64,000 bases of DNA from an uncultured Pelagibacteraceae bacterium (GTDB lineage: Bacteria; Pseudomonadota; Alphaproteobacteria; Pelagibacterales; Pelagibacteraceae): NCBI GenBank assembly GCA_902591755.1, contig CACJBX010000005.1:18114-82113 (forward strand), given 5' to 3'. The position numbers were made by a program, and so were the translations under genes. The first letter of the stretch is position 1, and the number at the start of each line of letters is the position of its first letter. Positions 7,798 to 22,108 of this stretch are shown piece after piece. The notes under the pieces were generated by a model that worked only from the letters and a program-made list of their open reading frames with translations, searched no databases and was not told the DNA's origin.

Positions 7798-8901
7798 ATG
7801 GATGATGTCGTTATAGTTGGTGGGGGTATAATAGGAGCTGCAACAGCTTATTTCTTGTCAAAAGAGGGCAGAAAAGTAAAAGTTATTGAAAGAGATCCAA
7901 CATATAGAACAGCATCTTTCCCTTTATCATTAGGCGGTTTCAGAAGACAATTTTTTCAAACAGAAAATATTCTTTTGGGGAAATTTGCTAGAGAATTTAT
8001 TTTTCAAATACCAGAACTTTTAAAAACACAAAAAAATCCCAAACCAACTGCTAGCATGGTGCCTAATGGATATTTGCTTATGTTTGGAGCAGAACATGCT
8101 GAAGAACAATATAAAGCTCTTGAAAATCATAAAGCATGCGATGCAGGGACAAAAAATATAAAAGGTTCTGATCTAAAACAATACTTTCCTTACATAAATA
8201 ACGAAGGCATTGAAACAGCAACTTTTACGGACAACAAAAGTGAAGGCTGGATTGATCCATTTATGTTCCATGGAGCATTAAAAAGTAAAGCTATTGAGCT
8301 AGGTGCTGAGTTCGTGAAAGGTGAAGTAAAATCTTTATCAGAAATAAAGGCTAAGACCATTGTATCAGCGGCTGGATGTTGGACAAAAGAATTGTTGGAA
8401 GATATTCCAGTTGAGCCACAAAAACACACTGTATTTAGAGTTAAGTGTCCCAAACATATTCCTGAAATGCCTTTGACTGGAGACTTAACCACTGGAGTAT
8501 ATTGGCGACCCGAAGGAAAAGAATACCTTGCAGGATCTCCCAAATCTGTTTTTGATGCAAAAGATCTTGAACCTGCATGGGATGACTTTGAAGAATTAGT
8601 TTGGCCAGCTCTTGCTCAAAGAGTTCCGATATTTGAAGAATTAAAACTAACAGGTGGTTGGGCCGGATATTATGATTGTAATAGATTAGATAACAATGCT
8701 GTAGTTGGTAAGCACCCAAAGTTTGAAAATGTTTACCTAGCAACTGGGTTTACAGGAAGAGGGTTAATGCAAGCTCCTGGGATAGGTAGAGCATTAACAG
8801 AATTAATTACGACAGGAGAATATCAGTCTATTGATATTTCCAATATGGCAGTCGAAAGAGTTTTAGGAAAAGAGGCAAGACCTGAGCCTTACGTTCTTTA
8901 A
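7798..8901 (+). CDS. FAD-dependent oxidoreductase, DAO/sarcosine-oxidase-beta superfamily, FOXRED1-like
   Basis: GGGIIG FAD motif; SLGGFRRQFFQTENI, EGWIDP, WAGYYD and ATGFTGRGLMQAPGIG motifs. Confidence 0.8.
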   Translation: MDDVVIVGGGIIGAATAYFLSKEGRKVKVIERDPTYRTASFPLSLGGFRRQFFQTENILLGKFAREFIFQIPELLKTQKNPKPTASMVPNGYLLMFGAEHAEEQYKALENHKACDAGTKNIKGSDLKQYFPYINNEGIETATFTDNKSEGWIDPFMFHGALKSKAIELGAEFVKGEVKSLSEIKAKTIVSAAGCWTKELLEDIPVEPQKHTVFRVKCPKHIPEMPLTGDLTTGVYWRPEGKEYLAGSPKSVFDAKDLEPAWDDFEELVWPALAQRVPIFEELKLTGGWAGYYDCNRLDNNAVVGKHPKFENVYLATGFTGRGLMQAPGIGRALTELITTGEYQSIDISNMAVERVLGKEARPEPYVL

Positions 8902-10524: not shown

Positions 10525-11724
10525 TTATTTTTTCTTATATTTTGCGGCCTCCTCAGAACCACTTGTTGCTGAACCTTTACTGTAAGAATGTGCACCCATC
10601 CCCGCCAATTGTCCATCTTTTACAATAAGATATTGATCTCTAATTGGTTTTTTATCGAAGAAGCATTCTAATATTTCTCTTACACCATCTGCATATCTTG
10701 CTTGAGCTGATAAGGACGTTCCAGATGTATGTGGTGTCATTCCGTGATTAGGCATTGACCTCCATACGTGTTCGTTGGGAGCGGGTTGCGGGAACCACAC
10801 ATCTCCAGCATATCCACTTAACTGACCAGATTTTAGCGCATCTGCTATATCGTTTTTGTTACAAATTTTTCCTCTGGCGGTATTTACGATATATGCCCCC
10901 TTTTTCATTTTACTAATCATTTTTTTATCAAATAAGTTTTCAGTTTCAGGGTGTAATGGACAGTTAATAGTGACTACGTCACAAACTTTTACCATTGACT
11001 CAACAGATTCATGAAACGTTAGATTTAATTCTTTTTCTACACTGTCAGGTAATTTGTGTCTGTCAAAGTAGTGCAAATGTACATCAAAAGGTTTCATTTT
11101 CCTTAAGGCATCAAGACCAATTCTTCCTGCAGCAACTGTTCCAATATGCATTCCTTCAACGTCATAACTTCTGTGAACAGCATCAGCTATATTCCATCCA
11201 CCTTCATTAACAATTCTATGTTGATTATGATAATCTCTAACCATTGAGACAATCATCATAACAATATGTTCTGCAACTGATCTTGAATTACAAAATGTAA
11301 CTTCAACAACATCAATTTTATTATCCATTGCTGCTTGTAAGTCTACGTGATCAGATCCTATACCAGCGGTAATTGCCATTTTTAAGTTTTTTGCTTTTGC
11401 TATTCTCTCTTTAGTTAAGTAATACGGAAAAAATGGTTGAGAAATTACGATGTCTGCATCAACAATATGTTTGTCTGCTTCACATCCATCACCATCTTTA
11501 CTATTAGTAACAATAAATTCATGACCATTACTCTCTAAAAATTTTCTAAGTCCTAATTCTCCTGATACACATCCTAGTAATTGACCTGGTGTAAAATCTC
11601 TTCCTTTAGGAGAAGGTAATGTCATTCCATCAGGATATTTTTCAAGTTTTGGTAAACCGCTCAAAGGATAAGATTTTGGCATTCCACCTTTTGGATCGTC
11701 ATATAAAACGCATAATATTTTCAT
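10525..11724 (-). CDS. fdh: NAD-dependent, metal-independent formate dehydrogenase (D-2-hydroxyacid dehydrogenase superfamily)
   Basis: KILCVLYDDP N-terminus, TAGIGSDHVDL, AAGRIG, YFDRH, NTARG, GDVWFPQPAP and PHTSG motifs; AGGAG RBS upstream. Confidence 0.95.
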   Translation of the reverse strand: MKILCVLYDDPKGGMPKSYPLSGLPKLEKYPDGMTLPSPKGRDFTPGQLLGCVSGELGLRKFLESNGHEFIVTNSKDGDGCEADKHIVDADIVISQPFFPYYLTKERIAKAKNLKMAITAGIGSDHVDLQAAMDNKIDVVEVTFCNSRSVAEHIVMMIVSMVRDYHNQHRIVNEGGWNIADAVHRSYDVEGMHIGTVAAGRIGLDALRKMKPFDVHLHYFDRHKLPDSVEKELNLTFHESVESMVKVCDVVTINCPLHPETENLFDKKMISKMKKGAYIVNTARGKICNKNDIADALKSGQLSGYAGDVWFPQPAPNEHVWRSMPNHGMTPHTSGTSLSAQARYADGVREILECFFDKKPIRDQYLIVKDGQLAGMGAHSYSKGSATSGSEEAAKYKKK

Positions 11725-12791: not shown

Positions 12792-13697
12792 ATGCTAGAG
12801 CTTAAAAACGAAAAAGTAGCTATTCCTGTAGTACTGTTAGCCGGTATTTTATGGTCTTTTGGACCTTTAGTTGTAAGACATATTGACCAACCCGAATTAG
12901 TTCCATGGCAATATCTTTTAGGAAGAGGAGTTACAATTTTCTTAATACTTAATTTGTATTTATTCTTTGAAGAGGGATTTTCTTTTTATAAAAATTATAA
13001 AAAAGTTGGAATATCTGGATTAATTGGAAGCTGTGGTTTAGGTATTGCCATGATCACGTTTATTTGGTCAATTACAAACACTTCAGCTGCAATAACTTTA
13101 TTATGTTTAGCGGCTATGCCTTTTATTACCGCATTTTTAGGTTTTTTGTTCTTAAAGGAAAAAATTTCAACAAATGTTTGGATTGCAATAATTATTGCTG
13201 TGATTGGTATAATAATTATAGCATTTGGTAATACTAACAAAGGTTCAATTTTTGGTCTTTTGTTTGGAATTTTATCTGCATTAGGTTTTTCAGTTTTTTC
13301 TGTATCATTAAGATGGAGACCTGAAACTCCAAAATTTACAACAGTTGCGATTGCTGGATTGATTTGTGCAATAGTTTCAATAGTAATACTGGTTGAGACT
13401 GACAGTAGTTTAATTTCTTCAAGCCGAAACCAAGGCTTGTTTTCAGTTCACGGCACTTTAGTTTGTGTGGGATTAATTCTTTATTCATTAGGTTCTAAAA
13501 TGATACAAGCTGCTGAACTTACTCTGTTGTCGTTAACAGAGGTAATTGGTGGAATTTTTTGGGTTTGGTTACCAATATTAGGAATTAATGAAGTTCCTAC
13601 TAATAACACAATTATAGGCGGCTTTTTAATTTTTATCTCAATAATTTATTATAGTTTAATTATAAAAAACAATAGAAGATTTATTGCATTAAACTAA
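12792..13697 (+). CDS. DMT/EamA family transporter
   Basis: About 10 hydrophobic segments, two EamA-like halves (PFITAFLGFLFLKE; EVPT). Confidence 0.9.
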   Translation: MLELKNEKVAIPVVLLAGILWSFGPLVVRHIDQPELVPWQYLLGRGVTIFLILNLYLFFEEGFSFYKNYKKVGISGLIGSCGLGIAMITFIWSITNTSAAITLLCLAAMPFITAFLGFLFLKEKISTNVWIAIIIAVIGIIIIAFGNTNKGSIFGLLFGILSALGFSVFSVSLRWRPETPKFTTVAIAGLICAIVSIVILVETDSSLISSSRNQGLFSVHGTLVCVGLILYSLGSKMIQAAELTLLSLTEVIGGIFWVWLPILGINEVPTNNTIIGGFLIFISIIYYSLIIKNNRRFIALN

Positions 13698-14810
13698 ATG
13701 ACAAATAAAAAAATTGTTAATAGTTGGAATGAGTGGGATCCGCTTAAGCACGTGATTGTTGGAAGAGCAGACGGTTGTTGTATACCAGCACCTGAACCAG
13801 CTTTAGACGCAAAAGTTCCTGAGGACTCAGATATGAAAGGCCAACATGGTCCTCGAACTAAAGATACAGTTGATAAAGCTAATCAACTTTTAAACGATTT
13901 TGCCTCCATACTTGAAAAAAGAGGTATCAAAGTTGATAGACCTATACCTTTAAATCATAATCAAAAAGTTTCTACACCAGATTGGGAAGTTGAAAGTATG
14001 TTTGGTTGTATGCCTGCAAGAGATATAATTTTAACAGTTGGAAACGAAATGTTAGAAGCCACGATGAGTTATAGATGTAGATGGTTTGAATATTTAAATT
14101 ACAGACCTTTACTTAAAAAATATTTCGATCAAGATAAAAATATGAGACACGAGTCAGCTCCAAAACCTCGACTAACAGATGCAGATTATAGAAAGGATTA
14201 TTTGTCTGATAAAATTGATGTAAAAAAAAGACTGGAGTGGACTGAAAAAAAATTTTTTGTTACTACAGAAGAAGAACCATTATTTGATGCTGCGGATATA
14301 TTACGATTTGGTAAAGATTTAATAGTTCAACACGGTTTTACTACAAACTTAAGTGGAATTGATTGGTTAAGAAGACATTTCAAAAATCATAGGGTGCATG
14401 CTGTAAATTTTCCAGGAGATCCATATCCAATTCATATCGATGCAACTTTTACCCCTGTCACCGAAGGTATAATTATAAATAATCCTCAGAGAAAGCTACC
14501 AGTTTCACAACGGAAACTTTTTGAAGATAATGGATGGAAAATTTTAGACTCAGCTCAACCAGCTCATAATACCCCACCTCCATTATGCTATTCCTCAGTT
14601 TGGCTTTCAATGAATGTACTCGTTTTAGATCCAAAAACAGTTTGCGTAGAAAAAAGTGAAATTTACCAAGCTGATCAGTTAGACAAACTTGGTCTTGAAG
14701 TTGTCCCAGTAGAGATGAGAGATGCATATGCTTTTGGTGGTGGTCTTCATTGTTGTACTGCTGATGTATACAGGGAAGGGGACTTAAAAGATTATTTTCC
14801 TAAACAATAA
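13698..14810 (+). CDS. Amidinotransferase (L-arginine:glycine / inosamine-phosphate amidinotransferase family)
   Basis: NSWNEWDPLKHVIVG, MPARD, catalytic triad motifs FDAAD, HIDATF and GGGLHCCT, plus WLSMNVL. Confidence 0.9.
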   Translation: MTNKKIVNSWNEWDPLKHVIVGRADGCCIPAPEPALDAKVPEDSDMKGQHGPRTKDTVDKANQLLNDFASILEKRGIKVDRPIPLNHNQKVSTPDWEVESMFGCMPARDIILTVGNEMLEATMSYRCRWFEYLNYRPLLKKYFDQDKNMRHESAPKPRLTDADYRKDYLSDKIDVKKRLEWTEKKFFVTTEEEPLFDAADILRFGKDLIVQHGFTTNLSGIDWLRRHFKNHRVHAVNFPGDPYPIHIDATFTPVTEGIIINNPQRKLPVSQRKLFEDNGWKILDSAQPAHNTPPPLCYSSVWLSMNVLVLDPKTVCVEKSEIYQADQLDKLGLEVVPVEMRDAYAFGGGLHCCTADVYREGDLKDYFPKQ

Positions 14811-15545
14811 TTAATTTTTAGAAGAATTTTCGACATCAAGGGCCTCTAATTGTTGAGTAACCTCTTCATTATTGTTAGAAAAGTTCGTATCATTGCTTTT
14901 TCTATTACTTTCTCTCATTCTTAATCTTTCTTCTTTTAATTTTTCTTGTTCTTCTTTTGCTTTTTGTTCAAGATCAAATTTTTCTTCCCATTCTTTTAAT
15001 TTAAGCATCTCAAGATTTCTTTTCTCTTGTTCTTTTTCATCTCTTAATTTTTGTTCTCTTCTTTTTCGTCTTGTCTCTTTTAATTCTTTTTGTCTTTGTT
15101 CATCTTCTCTTACTTTTAAATCGATATCTTTACGATTTTGTTCTTCAGATCTAATTTGAAGCTCTTTCTCTCTCTTTTTTAGATCTGATTCTTTATTTTT
15201 TTGTTCTTCTCCTTTAAACTTTAAATTTAACTCTTTTTCTTTTAATGAATTTTCTTTAGTTTTTAATTCATTATCTTTTATTTCTAATTCTCTTTCTTTA
15301 AGCTTTAAATTTTCAAATTTAATCTGTAATTTTTCTTCTTGTTTCCTAAAATTATCTTCTTTAGCTCTTAATTCTTTTTTTTCTAAACTAAGTTTACTAA
15401 ATTCCTGTTTTTTTAAATCTTTTTCTAATTGTTGTTGTTTAACTTTTTGATTATGTTTGTATTCTTTTATCGCACTCGAAGTAAAACTTGCGAGCTTTGA
15501 AAACGCACCGTGTTCAATTTTTTTTCTTTTTTTTCTTTTAGGCAT
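14811..15545 (-). CDS. Hypothetical charged coiled-coil protein with heptad repeat array
   Basis: Fills the gap exactly; basic N-terminus, then K/E-rich helix. ATG at 15545 preferred over the track's start at 15569. Confidence 0.75.
   Translation of the reverse strand: MPKRKKRKKIEHGAFSKLASFTSSAIKEYKHNQKVKQQQLEKDLKKQEFSKLSLEKKELRAKEDNFRKQEEKLQIKFENLKLKERELEIKDNELKTKENSLKEKELNLKFKGEEQKNKESDLKKREKELQIRSEEQNRKDIDLKVREDEQRQKELKETRRKRREQKLRDEKEQEKRNLEMLKLKEWEEKFDLEQKAKEEQEKLKEERLRMRESNRKSNDTNFSNNNEEVTQQLEALDVENSSKN
15078..15392 (-). repeat. Degenerate 21-nt (7-aa) coding tandem repeat, about 15 units
   Basis: LSLEKKE|LRAKEDN|FRKQEEK|LQIKFEN|LKLKERE|LEIKDNE|LKTKENS|LKEKELN|LKFKGEE|QKNKESD|LKKREKE|LQIRSEE|QNRKDID|LKVREDE|QRQKELK. 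Confidence 0.75.
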
Positions 15546-15640
15546 TTTTTTTTGAACGTATTTAAGCAAATAAAATTAAATTCAACAAGATTAAATTTTC
15601 TTTATTGTTTAATTTGAGTTACAACTTTAAATAGAATTAA

Positions 15641-16976: not shown

Positions 16977-17837
16977 TTATGATTTTTTTAATTTTAAGAA
17001 AGAGTGGGTAGCTATCGTTAATACAATTATAGCACCCCCTACGATTGTTTCAGGCGTAGGCTGTTCTTTAATAATGAGCCAGACCCAAATCGGACCTATT
17101 ATAGTTTCTAACAAGAAAAATAAATTTACCTCTGCTGCTGTTATAAACCTAGGTGCTATAGTAACAAGAACGAATGGTATGGCTACACACATTACACTCA
17201 TTAAAGGAATAATATAGATATCGTTATTATTCAGAGAATAATCTTTTACAAAAAGTATTGCAAAAAGAGCTATGATCAACTTTCCAACCACTGCGGAGGG
17301 AACCAGGTTTAATTTTTTTGCTGATCTAATTATAACAGCACCCACTGCTAGACCCATGGCTGCAACAAATCCTAAAATATCACCAAAAAAATTTCCCAAC
17401 TTAATTGAGTCGTAAAAAATATATAGTGCAGCAAAAAAAGTTATAAAAATTGCTATCCAGGTTTTTTTATCAGGATTTTCTTTAAGGAAAAATGACCCAA
17501 GGATAGCAGATAACATTGGTGCTGTAGCAATCATTATCAAAGTATTAGCAACATTTGTATTTTGAATTGAGACAACAAAAGCAATGTTGGTAACTGAAAA
17601 GGTTAAAACGTAGGCGAAACCATAATAGCCATTAGATCTTAATAAATTAAAAAATTTCAATTTATATATTAAAAGCATTCCAATAAAAACTAAAACAAAC
17701 GGTATGATACCTCTATAAAAAACCAAACTCCAAGTCTCAACATTAGATAGTCTTATAAATAAAGAGTCTGGCGTTATAAACATAACTGCCACAAAAGCCA
17801 TCAAAGACCCTTTTTTTTGGTCAGTTAAACTATTCAT
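16977..17837 (-). CDS. DMT/EamA family transporter
   Basis: About 10 TM segments, FITPDSLFIR, APRFITAAEV; ATGA overlap with the gshB stop fixes the start at 17837. Confidence 0.88.
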   Translation of the reverse strand: MNSLTDQKKGSLMAFVAVMFITPDSLFIRLSNVETWSLVFYRGIIPFVLVFIGMLLIYKLKFFNLLRSNGYYGFAYVLTFSVTNIAFVVSIQNTNVANTLIMIATAPMLSAILGSFFLKENPDKKTWIAIFITFFAALYIFYDSIKLGNFFGDILGFVAAMGLAVGAVIIRSAKKLNLVPSAVVGKLIIALFAILFVKDYSLNNNDIYIIPLMSVMCVAIPFVLVTIAPRFITAAEVNLFFLLETIIGPIWVWLIIKEQPTPETIVGGAIIVLTIATHSFLKLKKS

Positions 17838-18760
17838 GCTCCAAGTTCTTTCCAAAAAGTTTTTGCTAGATTTTTACCTGATAGATCATAGTAAGTTTTT
17901 ATTCCTGTGGGGGATGTAACATTTATATCACCACTAAGTTTTTGATCAATCAAGTCAATTCCAGCAAAAAAAATGTTTTCTTTTTTTAAATCTTTTGCAA
18001 TTAAATTTGAAATTTGCTTTTCTACTTTAGTTAATTTTGTACTGATTACTTTCGCACCCTTACTCATATTGCTTAAAAATGATCCTTTTTTTGGAATTCT
18101 TGAAATAACACCACGTAATTTTCCGTTTATAACAAAAACTCTTTTGTCTCCTTTATTTATTTTTGGAAGAAATTTTTGACACATAATGTGACCATTTTTT
18201 TCAACAAATCTTTTAACTAGATTTGATTTAAATCTGGTTAATAAATGAATATCATTTCCACTGTAACCATGAATAGGTTTTAAGATTACCTTTTTGTTTT
18301 TTTTAAAAAAAGCCTTAATTTCATTAATGTTTTGAGTAAATATAGTGTTGGGCATATATTTTTGATACTTAGACGAGTATAACTTTTCAGAAATACTTCT
18401 AATAGATGTTGGATCATTTATTATTTTAACTTTGGTTTTTATCGAGTCCAAAATATAAGTTGTTGAAATATACTCAAGATTAAACGGTGGATTCTGACGA
18501 ATGAGAATAAATTTACATTTTACAAGTTCAAAAGACTTTTTTTTTAAAATTTTAAAGAATTTTTTTTTATTATAATTAATATTTACGAAATATCCTTTTG
18601 CTATCACTTTTGAATTAATAATTGAAAGATTTTTTGGTTCGTAGTAGAAAATTTTATACCTTTTATTTTGAATTTCATTAGCTAAAAAAATACTAGTATC
18701 TGTTTCAGGATTTAACTTGGAAGGAATATCTCCTTGAATAGCCACAATTCTATTTGTCAT
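17834..18760 (-). CDS. gshB: Glutathione synthetase (ATP-grasp)
   Basis: DTSIFL, RQNPPFN, EKL, KPIHGYSG, GDKRV and INVTSPTG motifs; adjacent to gshA. Confidence 0.92.
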   Translation of the reverse strand: MTNRIVAIQGDIPSKLNPETDTSIFLANEIQNKRYKIFYYEPKNLSIINSKVIAKGYFVNINYNKKKFFKILKKKSFELVKCKFILIRQNPPFNLEYISTTYILDSIKTKVKIINDPTSIRSISEKLYSSKYQKYMPNTIFTQNINEIKAFFKKNKKVILKPIHGYSGNDIHLLTRFKSNLVKRFVEKNGHIMCQKFLPKINKGDKRVFVINGKLRGVISRIPKKGSFLSNMSKGAKVISTKLTKVEKQISNLIAKDLKKENIFFAGIDLIDQKLSGDINVTSPTGIKTYYDLSGKNLAKTFWKELGA

Positions 18761-20066: not shown

Positions 20067-20624
20067 TTAAAGTGAAGAATATGGTTTTCTAGCAAATATT
20101 CTTTTCACCATCGGTGCAAATTCCTCTAAACTCATGCTTTTGTATTCTGGATCAAAAGAACATTGATCATATTTTTCACAAAAATTTATTGTATCTTGAT
20201 AATACTTGTGATCTTTATATTTTTCTCTTTTAAATCGGTCAGCTCCAAGATGATGAGCATAATAATACATTTGAAATTCACCATGTTTTTCAATTATCCA
20301 ATGAGTTTTTTCAGACACAAAAGGCTTTAATACTGATGCAGCATACTCTGAGTGGTTTAAAGGAGCTAATTCATCTCCAATATCATGTAATAAACACGCA
20401 ACAACCATCTCTTCATTTTCATTATTTCTAAAAGCTCTCGTAGCACTCTGCAACGAATGTTCTAATCTTGTGATTTTATAACCTTCTAAAGTTGTCGTCA
20501 TTCTAGATAAAAAATTTAGTATTCTGTCAGCTGTCTCACCAACATATTCTTTTTCTAATTTGTCTAAAAAAAGATAGTCTTCTTTTGACCCATTTTTCAT
20601 TTCAGTAAAGTTTACTTTTTTCAT
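20067..20624 (-). CDS. HD-domain metalloprotein, PhnZ/MIOX-like (H..HD..H..H..D)
   Basis: RLEHSLQ, LLHDIGD, NHSE, EKHG and YDQ motifs. ATG 20624 or TTG 20630. Confidence 0.8.
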   Translation of the reverse strand: MKKVNFTEMKNGSKEDYLFLDKLEKEYVGETADRILNFLSRMTTTLEGYKITRLEHSLQSATRAFRNNENEEMVVACLLHDIGDELAPLNHSEYAASVLKPFVSEKTHWIIEKHGEFQMYYYAHHLGADRFKREKYKDHKYYQDTINFCEKYDQCSFDPEYKSMSLEEFAPMVKRIFARKPYSSL

Positions 20625-20626
20625 AC

Positions 20627-22108
20627 TCAATTATTAGACTTTGTACTCAATAAAGACAACTGTGTCACTTTATTATCACCTAGGTCATCAATTAATTTTA
20701 CAGGGTAATCACCTGTAAAATAATGATCAGTTAATTGTGGGTACGTTGAGTTTCTTTTTTCATAACCCATTGCTCTATACAAACCGTCAACACTTAAGAA
20801 TTTAAGAGATTTTGCATCTATATATTTGCAAATATCATCATTAGTTTTATTAGCTGCTAAAAGCTCTTTTTTTGTGGGTGTATCAACACCGTAAAAGTCT
20901 GGAAATCTAATTTCGGGTGAAGCAATTCTTACATGAACCTCTTTTGCTCCAAAATCATATAACATTTTTACTATTTTATGTGAGGTCGTACCCCTCACTA
21001 AAGAGTCATCAACCAAAACAATTTTTTTATTTTTGATTGTAGATTTATTTGCATTTAATTTTAATCTGACACCAAGGCTTCTTATCTTTTGAGCTGGTTC
21101 AATAAAAGTTCTTCCCACATAATGATTTCTTATTAAACCAAGATCAAAATTAATTTTTTCATGTTGGCTATAACCGATAGCTGCAGCATTCCCTGAGTCT
21201 GGAACAGGAACTACTAAATCAGCATCAATGCTCGTTTCTTTTGCAAGCTCAACACCAAAATTTTTCCTATACTCATATGCGCATTTTCCATTTAAAATAC
21301 TATCTGGTCTTGAAAAATAGATATATTCAAAAACACACGGCCTAATTTTTTTTAATGGAAATGGTTTTAAACTAATAAGTTTTTTATTTTCAACATAAAC
21401 AATTTCACCATTTTCTACGTCTCTGATATATTTAGCTCCTATAATATCTAATGCACAAGTTTCGGAAGCAAAAACATAAGAGTCTTTAAGTTTTCCTATT
21501 ACCAAAGGTCTAATTCCAAAAGGATCTCTTACTCCAATAAGTAAATTTCTTGCAAGCATTACAAGTGCATAACCTCCTTGTATTTGAAACAAAGCATCAA
21601 TAATTTTGTCTATAACTTTTCCTCTTTTTGATCTTGCAATTAACTGAACAATTGTCTCAGTATCAGACGTAGTATAAAAAATTGCGCCATCTTCAACTAA
21701 TTTTCTTCTAAGAGTTATTGCATTTGTAAGATTACCATTATGAGCTACTCCTATCCCTCCAGTATTAGTATCTGCGTAAAAAGGTTGAATATTTCTTAAC
21801 GTTGTACCTCCAGTAGTACTATATCTATTATGTGCAATAGCAAAATTACCCGGTAGAGATTTTAAAACTTCTTCTTTATTAAAATTATCGCCCACTAATC
21901 CAAATCTTTTTTCTGAGTGATATTTTTTTCCATCAAAGGTTACAACCCCACAACCCTCTTGTCCTCTATGTTGTAAAGCATGTAAACCAAGTGTAGAAAG
22001 TGTTGATGCGTCTTCGTTGTCGCTTATACCAAAAACACCACATTCCTCTTTTACTTTTGGATTAAAGTTCTTGAACTTTTTCTTTAGTATCCTGGTAATT
22101 TTCTTCAT
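20627..22108 (-). CDS. purF: Amidophosphoribosyltransferase
   Basis: Propeptide then CGVFG, LQHRGQ, HNRYSTTG, AHNGN, VDDSLVRGTT. Confidence 0.97.
   Translation of the reverse strand: MKKITRILKKKFKNFNPKVKEECGVFGISDNEDASTLSTLGLHALQHRGQEGCGVVTFDGKKYHSEKRFGLVGDNFNKEEVLKSLPGNFAIAHNRYSTTGGTTLRNIQPFYADTNTGGIGVAHNGNLTNAITLRRKLVEDGAIFYTTSDTETIVQLIARSKRGKVIDKIIDALFQIQGGYALVMLARNLLIGVRDPFGIRPLVIGKLKDSYVFASETCALDIIGAKYIRDVENGEIVYVENKKLISLKPFPLKKIRPCVFEYIYFSRPDSILNGKCAYEYRKNFGVELAKETSIDADLVVPVPDSGNAAAIGYSQHEKINFDLGLIRNHYVGRTFIEPAQKIRSLGVRLKLNANKSTIKNKKIVLVDDSLVRGTTSHKIVKMLYDFGAKEVHVRIASPEIRFPDFYGVDTPTKKELLAANKTNDDICKYIDAKSLKFLSVDGLYRAMGYEKRNSTYPQLTDHYFTGDYPVKLIDDLGDNKVTQLSLLSTKSNN

Follow-up and report, generated by a model that had tools for sequence, protein, structure and literature searches.

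A transporter-amidinotransferase gene pair of SAR11 bacteria and its possible role in guanidinoacetate salvage

Results

The window analysed here is a stretch of 64,000 nucleotides from an uncultured Pelagibacteraceae (SAR11) bacterium. Its forward strand carries an EamA/DMT transporter gene (12792-13697, 301 aa, an open reading frame (ORF) call) and a gene for an AGAT-like amidinotransferase (13698-14810, 370 aa), whose start codon lies directly after the transporter stop codon (TAA-ATG, 0 nt spacing). The best reading that we can offer, held tentatively and as somewhat short of an even chance, is that the enzyme works in reverse and converts guanidinoacetate and ornithine to arginine and glycine. 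This reading brings together two abutting genes with intact catalytic residues, a linkage kept across the genus, optional creatinase and threonine-aldolase-like partner genes and a failure to find guanidinoacetate methyltransferase (GAMT) or phosphagen kinase in the genomes searched; from these we infer import, the direction of the reaction and the donor. SAR11, the most abundant group of bacteria in the ocean, depends on external glycine. If guanidinoacetate or creatine is salvaged in this way, dissolved organic nitrogen would have an added route into the dominant ocean heterotrophs, and an amidinotransferase would serve primary catabolism, in contrast to the toxin and antibiotic roles of the characterised bacterial members. 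An initial annotation, made from the sequence alone, had described a transporter gene abutting a full-length amidinotransferase gene, and the ORF coordinates bear this out.

The enzyme has the predicted fold and residue set of an amidinotransferase

The best PDB sequence matches of the enzyme are human AGAT (E 4e-84), SxtG (3e-62), HsvA (1e-59) and StrB1 (9e-49). Its AlphaFold model (predicted local distance difference test, pLDDT, 88.5) is closest to human AGAT 4jdw among solved structures (Z 49.7, root-mean-square deviation 1.7 over 356 residues). Across AGAT, SxtG, HsvA and StrB1 the model scored Z 43-50, versus at most 28 for deiminases and DDAH, and Foldseek gave template-modelling scores of 0.83-0.91. 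As judged from the modelled fold and the residue set, the enzyme is a member of the amidinotransferase family of the pentein superfamily.

The enzyme belongs to a clade whose members are 61-98% identical and share the motifs CMP[P/A/S]RD, QHGFTTN and PYPIH; its named close relatives are Pelagibacteraceae. The catalytic triad D197 (14286..14288), H246 and C352 (14751..14753), all on the forward strand like the other residues given here, aligns with human D254, H303 and C407 (human numbering as in PMC3684758) and varies little or not at all across 246 clade members, so the triad reported in the initial annotation is indeed intact. Both guanidino-binding aspartates are kept, D109 (human D170) at the end of M105-P-A-R-D109 (14010..14024), a part of the signature CMP[P/A/S]RD whose closing Arg-Asp corresponds to human R169/D170, and D248 (human D305). 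The latter, invariant in the clade, lies with the PYPI of the 300-flap and catalytic His246 at 14421..14441 (human P299-N300-P301-M302, H303, D305), and it presumably contacts the leaving NH. The alignment also places Arg265 (14490..14492) at human R322 and Ser299-Ser300 (14592..14597) at human S354/S355, residues that we take to be the clamp for the substrate carboxylate; they are conserved in 246/246, 236/246 and 245/246 clade members, respectively.

The alignment confirmed that the flap reads PYPIH where human AGAT has PNPMH. The first variable site, Y243, is aromatic as in CyrA (F245), and the second, I245, is aliphatic as in AGAT (M302), CyrA having S247 there. CyrA with F245/S247 is strict for glycine (PMC4887976, PMC3684758). 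The proposal that the PYPIH loop signals a changed acceptor was therefore rejected. An extra residue before the Arg-Asp pair was also considered as an N-methyl pocket and is not diagnostic, since the CyrA-like protein has a loop of equal length. Codon-position identities to a relative were 86/94/60%, which indicates purifying selection.

The pair is core in Pelagibacter and the enzyme is near-core in the order

The transporter contains two EamA repeats (PF00892, E 4.6e-20), and a crude hydropathy scan shows ten hydrophobic segments, which agrees with the make-up of the EamA/DMT family (two repeats, about 10 membrane helices). Its sole PDB match was weak, LicB 7b0k at E 1e-5, and all its NCBIfam matches were far under cut-off. 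In the preferred reading, the EamA protein likely imports the substrate.

The enzyme was found in 51/61 genomes of the order Pelagibacterales and in 19/20 of those at least 90% complete, and it is thus near-core in the order. It is rarer outside the order, with matches in 11/401 genomes of the class and 13/401 of the phylum when distant homologues and the window's own genome are counted. In family f89, probably the Roseobacter family to judge from named loci, 46/221 genomes carried it. In another class, probably Gammaproteobacteria, 8/380 had the clade enzyme and 7 more had distant homologues, one genome being unscored. The view of the enzyme as an isolated oddity did not hold, since it is widespread in marine proteobacteria. 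Its retention in 19 of 20 near-complete, streamlined genomes implies that the compound it acts on is a common one.

Where both genes occur in a genome of the genus (27 cases), the two abut in 15, are separated by a creatinase gene in 11 and lie apart in 1. We then considered 80 GTDB loci, of which the 70 at 80% identity or more were taken as the Pelagibacter set. In these 70 the transporter is upstream of the enzyme in 69, a creatinase gene sits between the two in 21 and a threonine-aldolase-like gene lies downstream in 12; the other 10, more distant, loci have none of the three. Of 80 metagenome loci, 48 have creatinase immediately before the enzyme, 29 have the transporter there and 3 a contig end; a threonine-aldolase-like gene follows the enzyme in 23. 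The partner gene encodes a true creatinase (E 1e-159 to the P. putida enzyme, 1chm). After three weaker matches (27-28% identity) were dropped as other M24 enzymes, creatinase remained in 14/61 genomes, 12 times directly upstream of the enzyme, once beside the transporter at a contig break and once unlinked. It is limited to one half of the enzyme tree (8 changes, weak support), the window's lineage being in the other half, and urease does not track it, so creatinase was rejected as a fixed part of the operon.

In the sister family, a transporter homologue with 41-48% identity is on a different contig from the enzyme in each of the 22 genomes that have both genes (0/22 linked). The genes around it are unrelated in the 7 of 24 loci read, and it was set aside as a clue to the cargo. 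EamA genes also recur near the enzyme in other taxa; they are common and at under 30% identity are not orthologues, so these neighbours were not taken as support. By these counts the pair forms the core of the Pelagibacter locus, with creatinase as an optional addition, and elsewhere the enzyme does without this transporter. The expected conservation of the pair was thus found in the genus, and it failed in the sister family and in marine proteobacteria, which mostly have the enzyme without this transporter.

Comparison of the clade with enzymes of creatine and toxin synthesis

In two trees, both built without vertebrate AGAT and AmtA sequences, the clade forms its own starred group. One tree places the CyrA-like protein as its sister (97/92), a position supported there but not in a wider quick tree.

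Vertebrate AGAT/GATM (EC 2.1.4.1; 1jdw, 4jdw) shares with the enzyme the fold, 41% identity, the triad, R169/D170, D305, R322 and S354/S355. The SAR11 enzyme differs in having Tyr and Ile for N300 and M302, one extra residue before the Arg-Asp pair (MP[P/A/S]RD) and His-Gly-Phe for R269-S270-Q271. Its setting also differs, in hosts in which no GAMT or phosphagen kinase was found, its partners being a transporter and, at some loci, a creatinase. Because of these partners, the SAR11 enzyme, unlike AGAT, probably serves catabolism, and we regard it as probably an uncharacterised, catabolic variant of a known family. Cyanobacterial CyrA/AoaA, the arginine:glycine amidinotransferase of cylindrospermopsin synthesis, has 43% identity, is likewise aromatic at the N300 site, has a loop of equal length before the Arg-Asp pair, and keeps R322 with both serines. 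It differs in lying among polyketide synthase (PKS) genes of a secondary pathway, and the CyrA-like relative is also encoded between PKS genes, whereas the SAR11 enzyme is near-core with no such neighbours and in a clade of its own. AmtA, SxtG, HsvA and StrB1 share the family and the triad at lower similarity (33-39% for SxtG, HsvA and StrB1, AmtA lying outside the alignment); they transfer the amidino group to lysine, amino ketones, polyamines or inosamine phosphate, and unlike the SAR11 enzyme the HsvA-like and StrB1-like rows do not have the full R322/S354/S355 set. The creatinase/sarcosine oxidase route (P. putida CreA, 1chm) has in common with the SAR11 system a true creatinase, as a recurrent partner gene, and SoxB, present in this genome. 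Creatinase frees urea and most SAR11 genomes have no urease, while a transferase would retain the amidino nitrogen as arginine.

These comparisons bear on whether the enzyme is a guanidino hydrolase or makes a secondary metabolite like its characterised bacterial relatives, which serve toxin or antibiotic pathways. AoaA frees ornithine from arginine alone (PMC3684758), a precedent for hydrolysis. The transferase fold, with its distance from the hydrolases, and the full residue set argue against this, as do near-core retention in streamlined genomes, the lack of a nonribosomal peptide synthetase (NRPS) domain in this genome and the lack of biosynthetic neighbours, be it an NRPS/PKS, ATP-grasp or aminocyclitol cluster, in the 70 Pelagibacter loci. 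We consider both variants very improbable.

Guanidinoacetate salvage is the preferred reading

In the proposed mechanism, the EamA protein would bring in a creatine-pathway guanidino acid, most likely guanidinoacetate. Cys352 would attack the guanidino carbon, His246 and Asp197 would assist release of the amine, and the amidino group would then pass to ornithine, giving arginine and glycine. The cell would gain glycine, which is needed across the genus, and arginine, bypassing carbamoyl-phosphate, ArgF, ArgG and ArgH and requiring no urease. The bypass would save about 4 ATP equivalents and 2 N. Guanidinoacetate could come from direct uptake or, more speculatively, from N-demethylation of creatine by a demethylase paralogue.

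Several lines of evidence argue for guanidinoacetate as the donor. The nearest relatives with known or evident substrates, human AGAT, the CyrA-like protein and a GAMT-fused amidinotransferase, use arginine and glycine; the clamp residues are kept; amidino transfer by AmtA is reversible (PMC4887976); and the cell is short of glycine. A 135-genome preprint describes glycine dependence as genus-wide and arginine synthesis as kept (bioRxiv 10.64898/2026.04.03.716430), so the forward reaction would be costly in glycine. ArgF and ArgG matches were found in 5/5 genomes, ArgF over cut-off in 2/5, and ornithine should therefore be made. The creatinase and threonine-aldolase-like partners fit as well, since both routes lead to glycine. 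The salvage direction first suggested, transfer to ornithine with release of arginine and of glycine or another amine, stands as the best-supported reading through the linkage and these partners; of the suggested donors, taurocyamine and homoarginine gained no specific support.

The host genome, 85% complete, has ArgF, ArgG and SoxB over cut-offs and DMGDH-like genes. No creatinase, urease, arginase-family gene, BHMT, creatininase or threonine aldolase was found in it, nor was GAMT, phosphagen kinase or an NRPS condensation domain. Inspection of the window's ORF list showed no apparent PKS or aminoglycoside genes, and the initial statement that NRPS, PKS, aminoglycoside and GAMT genes are missing nearby thus agrees with what was found. 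More widely, the GAMT domain of the fusion protein P0134 had matches in 0/34 genomes and phosphagen kinase (PF00217) in 0/5, some of these genomes being incomplete, which makes classic creatine synthesis by AGAT, GAMT and creatine kinase unlikely. A methyltransferase beside a second enzyme copy was rejected as GAMT because it is METTL27-like. Urease was present in 8/64 genomes, so urea released by creatinase would mostly be unusable, and transfer would retain its nitrogen. A SAR11 creatinase has been noted (PMC3686209), and a preprint uses gatm only as an annotation for taurine to taurocyamine (bioRxiv 10.1101/2024.12.10.627767). The openly accessible literature that was searched yielded no study of this enzyme in SAR11.

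A number of observations weigh against guanidinoacetate salvage. EamA proteins include exporters. The clade-specific pocket residues MP[P/A/S]RD, QHGF and PYPIH mean that specificity may differ from that of AGAT, and the partner creatinase acts on creatine, not guanidinoacetate, which favours creatine as the donor. This genome's lineage has no creatinase and no threonine aldolase was found in the genome, and in the sister family the transporter homologue is unlinked. In f89 the enzyme gene mostly stands alone (41 of 46 loci read, plus 5 others), and creatinase is not enriched genome-wide, being present in 34/46 enzyme-positive genomes versus 114/175 others (p 0.29). We met no literature report of guanidinoacetate in seawater, and the accessible part of PMC8269262 has 0 matches to 'guanidin'.

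Creatine as a possible donor

The neighbours of the enzyme raise a second reading, in which it is an arginine:sarcosine (creatine:ornithine) amidinotransferase and imported creatine yields arginine and sarcosine, the latter then giving glycine via sarcosine oxidase. Such an enzyme would be a nitrogen-saving alternative to creatinase for the same imported substrate and, being reversible, would also make creatine from sarcosine. We regard this as possible, if rather unlikely. Creatinase has been recruited beside the enzyme at least 3 times independently (the Pelagibacter operon and two f89 loci), and 12 of the 14 Pelagibacterales creatinases are directly upstream of it. Of the 34 f89 genomes with both genes, 4 have creatinase no more than 1.2 kb from the enzyme, at two distinct sites, against about 0.06 expected from a naive random model. 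A creatine donor explains creatinase and the betaine-demethylation neighbours more directly than guanidinoacetate does: a second SAR11 copy lies directly after genes for a betaine-type substrate-binding protein and BHMT-like and DMGDH-like proteins (L106, L070), and another copy is directly followed by a homocysteine S-methyltransferase gene (L182). DDAH, of the same superfamily, frees a secondary amine.

Co-occurrence bears on both donors, with limits of its own. In the probable Gammaproteobacteria, creatinase is present in 7/8 enzyme-positive genomes (only 5 families) versus 0/15 negatives, and SoxB in 7/8 positives; the negatives, 15 of the 20 listed, have smaller genomes, and the comparison is thus confounded by habitat and size. 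SoxB was over cut-off in 12/13 enzyme-positive outside genomes, a count without a background rate. Two complete genomes of a related genus jointly have no enzyme, transporter or SoxB, which counts as one event. Taken together, genomic context points to creatine-type catabolism, and specifically to creatine-pathway compounds; the earlier proposal of a guanidino donor is to that extent sharpened, creatine itself not having been named in it.

Field tracing in the North Pacific (Boysen et al.) found 13C3,15N1-creatine from labelled glycine betaine, and its authors infer either a sarcosine-to-creatine enzyme yet to be identified or a reversible creatinase (PMC9321204). Creatine made from sarcosine by the present enzyme fits this isotopologue. 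Labelled glycine plus a labelled methyl group of S-adenosylmethionine could give an identical mass; in the same paper the betaine methyl reaches S-adenosylmethionine-dependent products, although labelled glycine was under about 5%. The chemistry also speaks against creatine, as the closest characterised relatives are glycine enzymes and our literature search met no amidinotransferase with an N-methylated partner. Asp248, the presumed contact of the leaving NH, is invariant. We know of no amidinotransferase that takes an N-methyl partner, and to our knowledge creatine is not a donor for vertebrate AGAT.

Acceptance of sarcosine would be new chemistry for the family and would answer the question left by PMC9321204. 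With a probability that we put at low rather than negligible, the clade may be the first arginine:sarcosine amidinotransferase, a one-step, reversible link of glycine-betaine demethylation to creatine in nearly all SAR11. It would then be the missing enzyme behind the sarcosine-derived creatine of the tracer work, urease-less SAR11 would harvest creatine nitrogen as arginine, and heterotrophic bacteria, without GAMT, would both consume and supply ocean creatine.

Other donors and the forward reaction

A different linear guanidino acid, such as taurocyamine, 4-guanidinobutyrate, guanidinopropionate or homoarginine, would give arginine with taurine, gamma-aminobutyrate, beta-alanine or lysine. 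Human GATM forms taurocyamine, guanidinobutyrate and guanidinopropionate (PMC9772407), and f89 neighbours of the enzyme include aldehyde dehydrogenases (10 clustered loci, six of which represent a single syntenic site), an agmatinase-family gene (L162) and class III aminotransferases (L202, L207). In the Pelagibacter operon creatinase recurs and these neighbours do not, and CyrA, which is aromatic at the N300 site, has a narrower range (PMC4887976). We consider such donors distinctly unlikely.

The reaction could also run forward as an overflow or catabolic valve for arginine: with glycine or sarcosine as acceptor, ornithine would form along with a guanidino acid for the EamA protein to export. 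With creatinase, the two enzymes would amount to a net arginase, arginine yielding ornithine and urea with sarcosine recycled. SAR11 binds arginine with a dissociation constant of 32 pM (PMC11485210), neither this genome nor genome G004 gave an arginase-family match, and creatine per carbon is higher in field samples than in any culture of one study (PMC8269262). In 15/16 sister-family loci read, a Lys/Arg/Orn-type ABC transporter is encoded some 2.4 kb from the enzyme, its binding protein being under the family cut-off. Without creatinase, which most strains do not have (present in 14/61), the valve would waste glycine or sarcosine, the nutrient that the genus needs, and arginase-family genes were present in 3/5 genomes tested. 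This makes a valve quite improbable.

Additional observations on the locus and its relatives

Promoter and terminator matches at the locus were at chance level only, and no Rfam riboswitch was found in 9 loci. Contigs from RNA runs of four studies span both genes and the junction; a single transcript cannot be read from contigs and there was no silent control, and they were not used as evidence.

Elsewhere in SAR11, genome G004 has the transporter directly before a threonine-aldolase-like gene with no enzyme at that locus (L215, G004:C2:18000-29000). Its sole enzyme copy (L106, G004:C4:92000-105000) is divergent at 74%, with S299 replaced by Tyr, and sits within a cluster of betaine-type demethylation genes that also holds a GbcA-like Rieske oxygenase and a DddP-like gene. 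A second SAR11 enzyme clade (L107, L066) is followed by a different EamA gene, a 2-oxoglutarate-Fe(II) oxygenase and a luciferase-like monooxygenase; genome G027 has both copies. One Pelagibacter genome (L123 6026-7225, G033) encodes a distant, StrB1-like amidinotransferase within a surface-polysaccharide island. In f89 the enzyme lies once beside the urease alpha subunit (L180 8644-10401) and once directly after the agmatinase-family gene (L162 6128-7117), a site that holds creatinase in L178.

Among other relatives, a 61% copy with the flap LIPTH heads an ectoine-utilisation-like operon of EutA-, EutB-, EutC- and DoeB-like genes (L142 7283-15857). A 53% relative in Photobacterium sp. DA100 (L153 2764-8143) has nearby an EamA gene, a sodium:solute symporter gene and a divergent AraC regulator gene, an arrangement often met in catabolic uptake loci. 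Fusions include P0134 (amidinotransferase-GAMT, 694 aa), P0160 (with an Orn/Arg decarboxylase-family domain, 804 aa) and P0142 (with a sulfate permease-STAS protein, 1259 aa), the last from a eukaryote transcriptome set and possibly chimeric. Phage copies are distant (22-28% identity) and one viral contig has a 43% copy; on giant-virus contig L160 (3998-5143) a 43% amidinotransferase lies near genes for a pyridoxal-phosphate-dependent decarboxylase and a PALP-family protein.

In the window, the pair is located in a glycine and one-carbon neighbourhood with GcvP (2-2827), a DAO-family FAD amino-acid oxidase (7798-8901) and an NAD-dependent formate dehydrogenase (10525-11724); relatives have fdhD and moeA at this neighbourhood instead. 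A charged, low-complexity ORF without a family match (14811-15569) converges on the enzyme stop codon with zero gap, and related ORFs occupy the same site in 40/80 loci. A second EamA paralogue (16977-17855), about 30% identical to the first, precedes gshB/gshA-like genes, and an HD-domain protein (20067-20630) bears a distant likeness to PhnZ/TmpB oxygenases.

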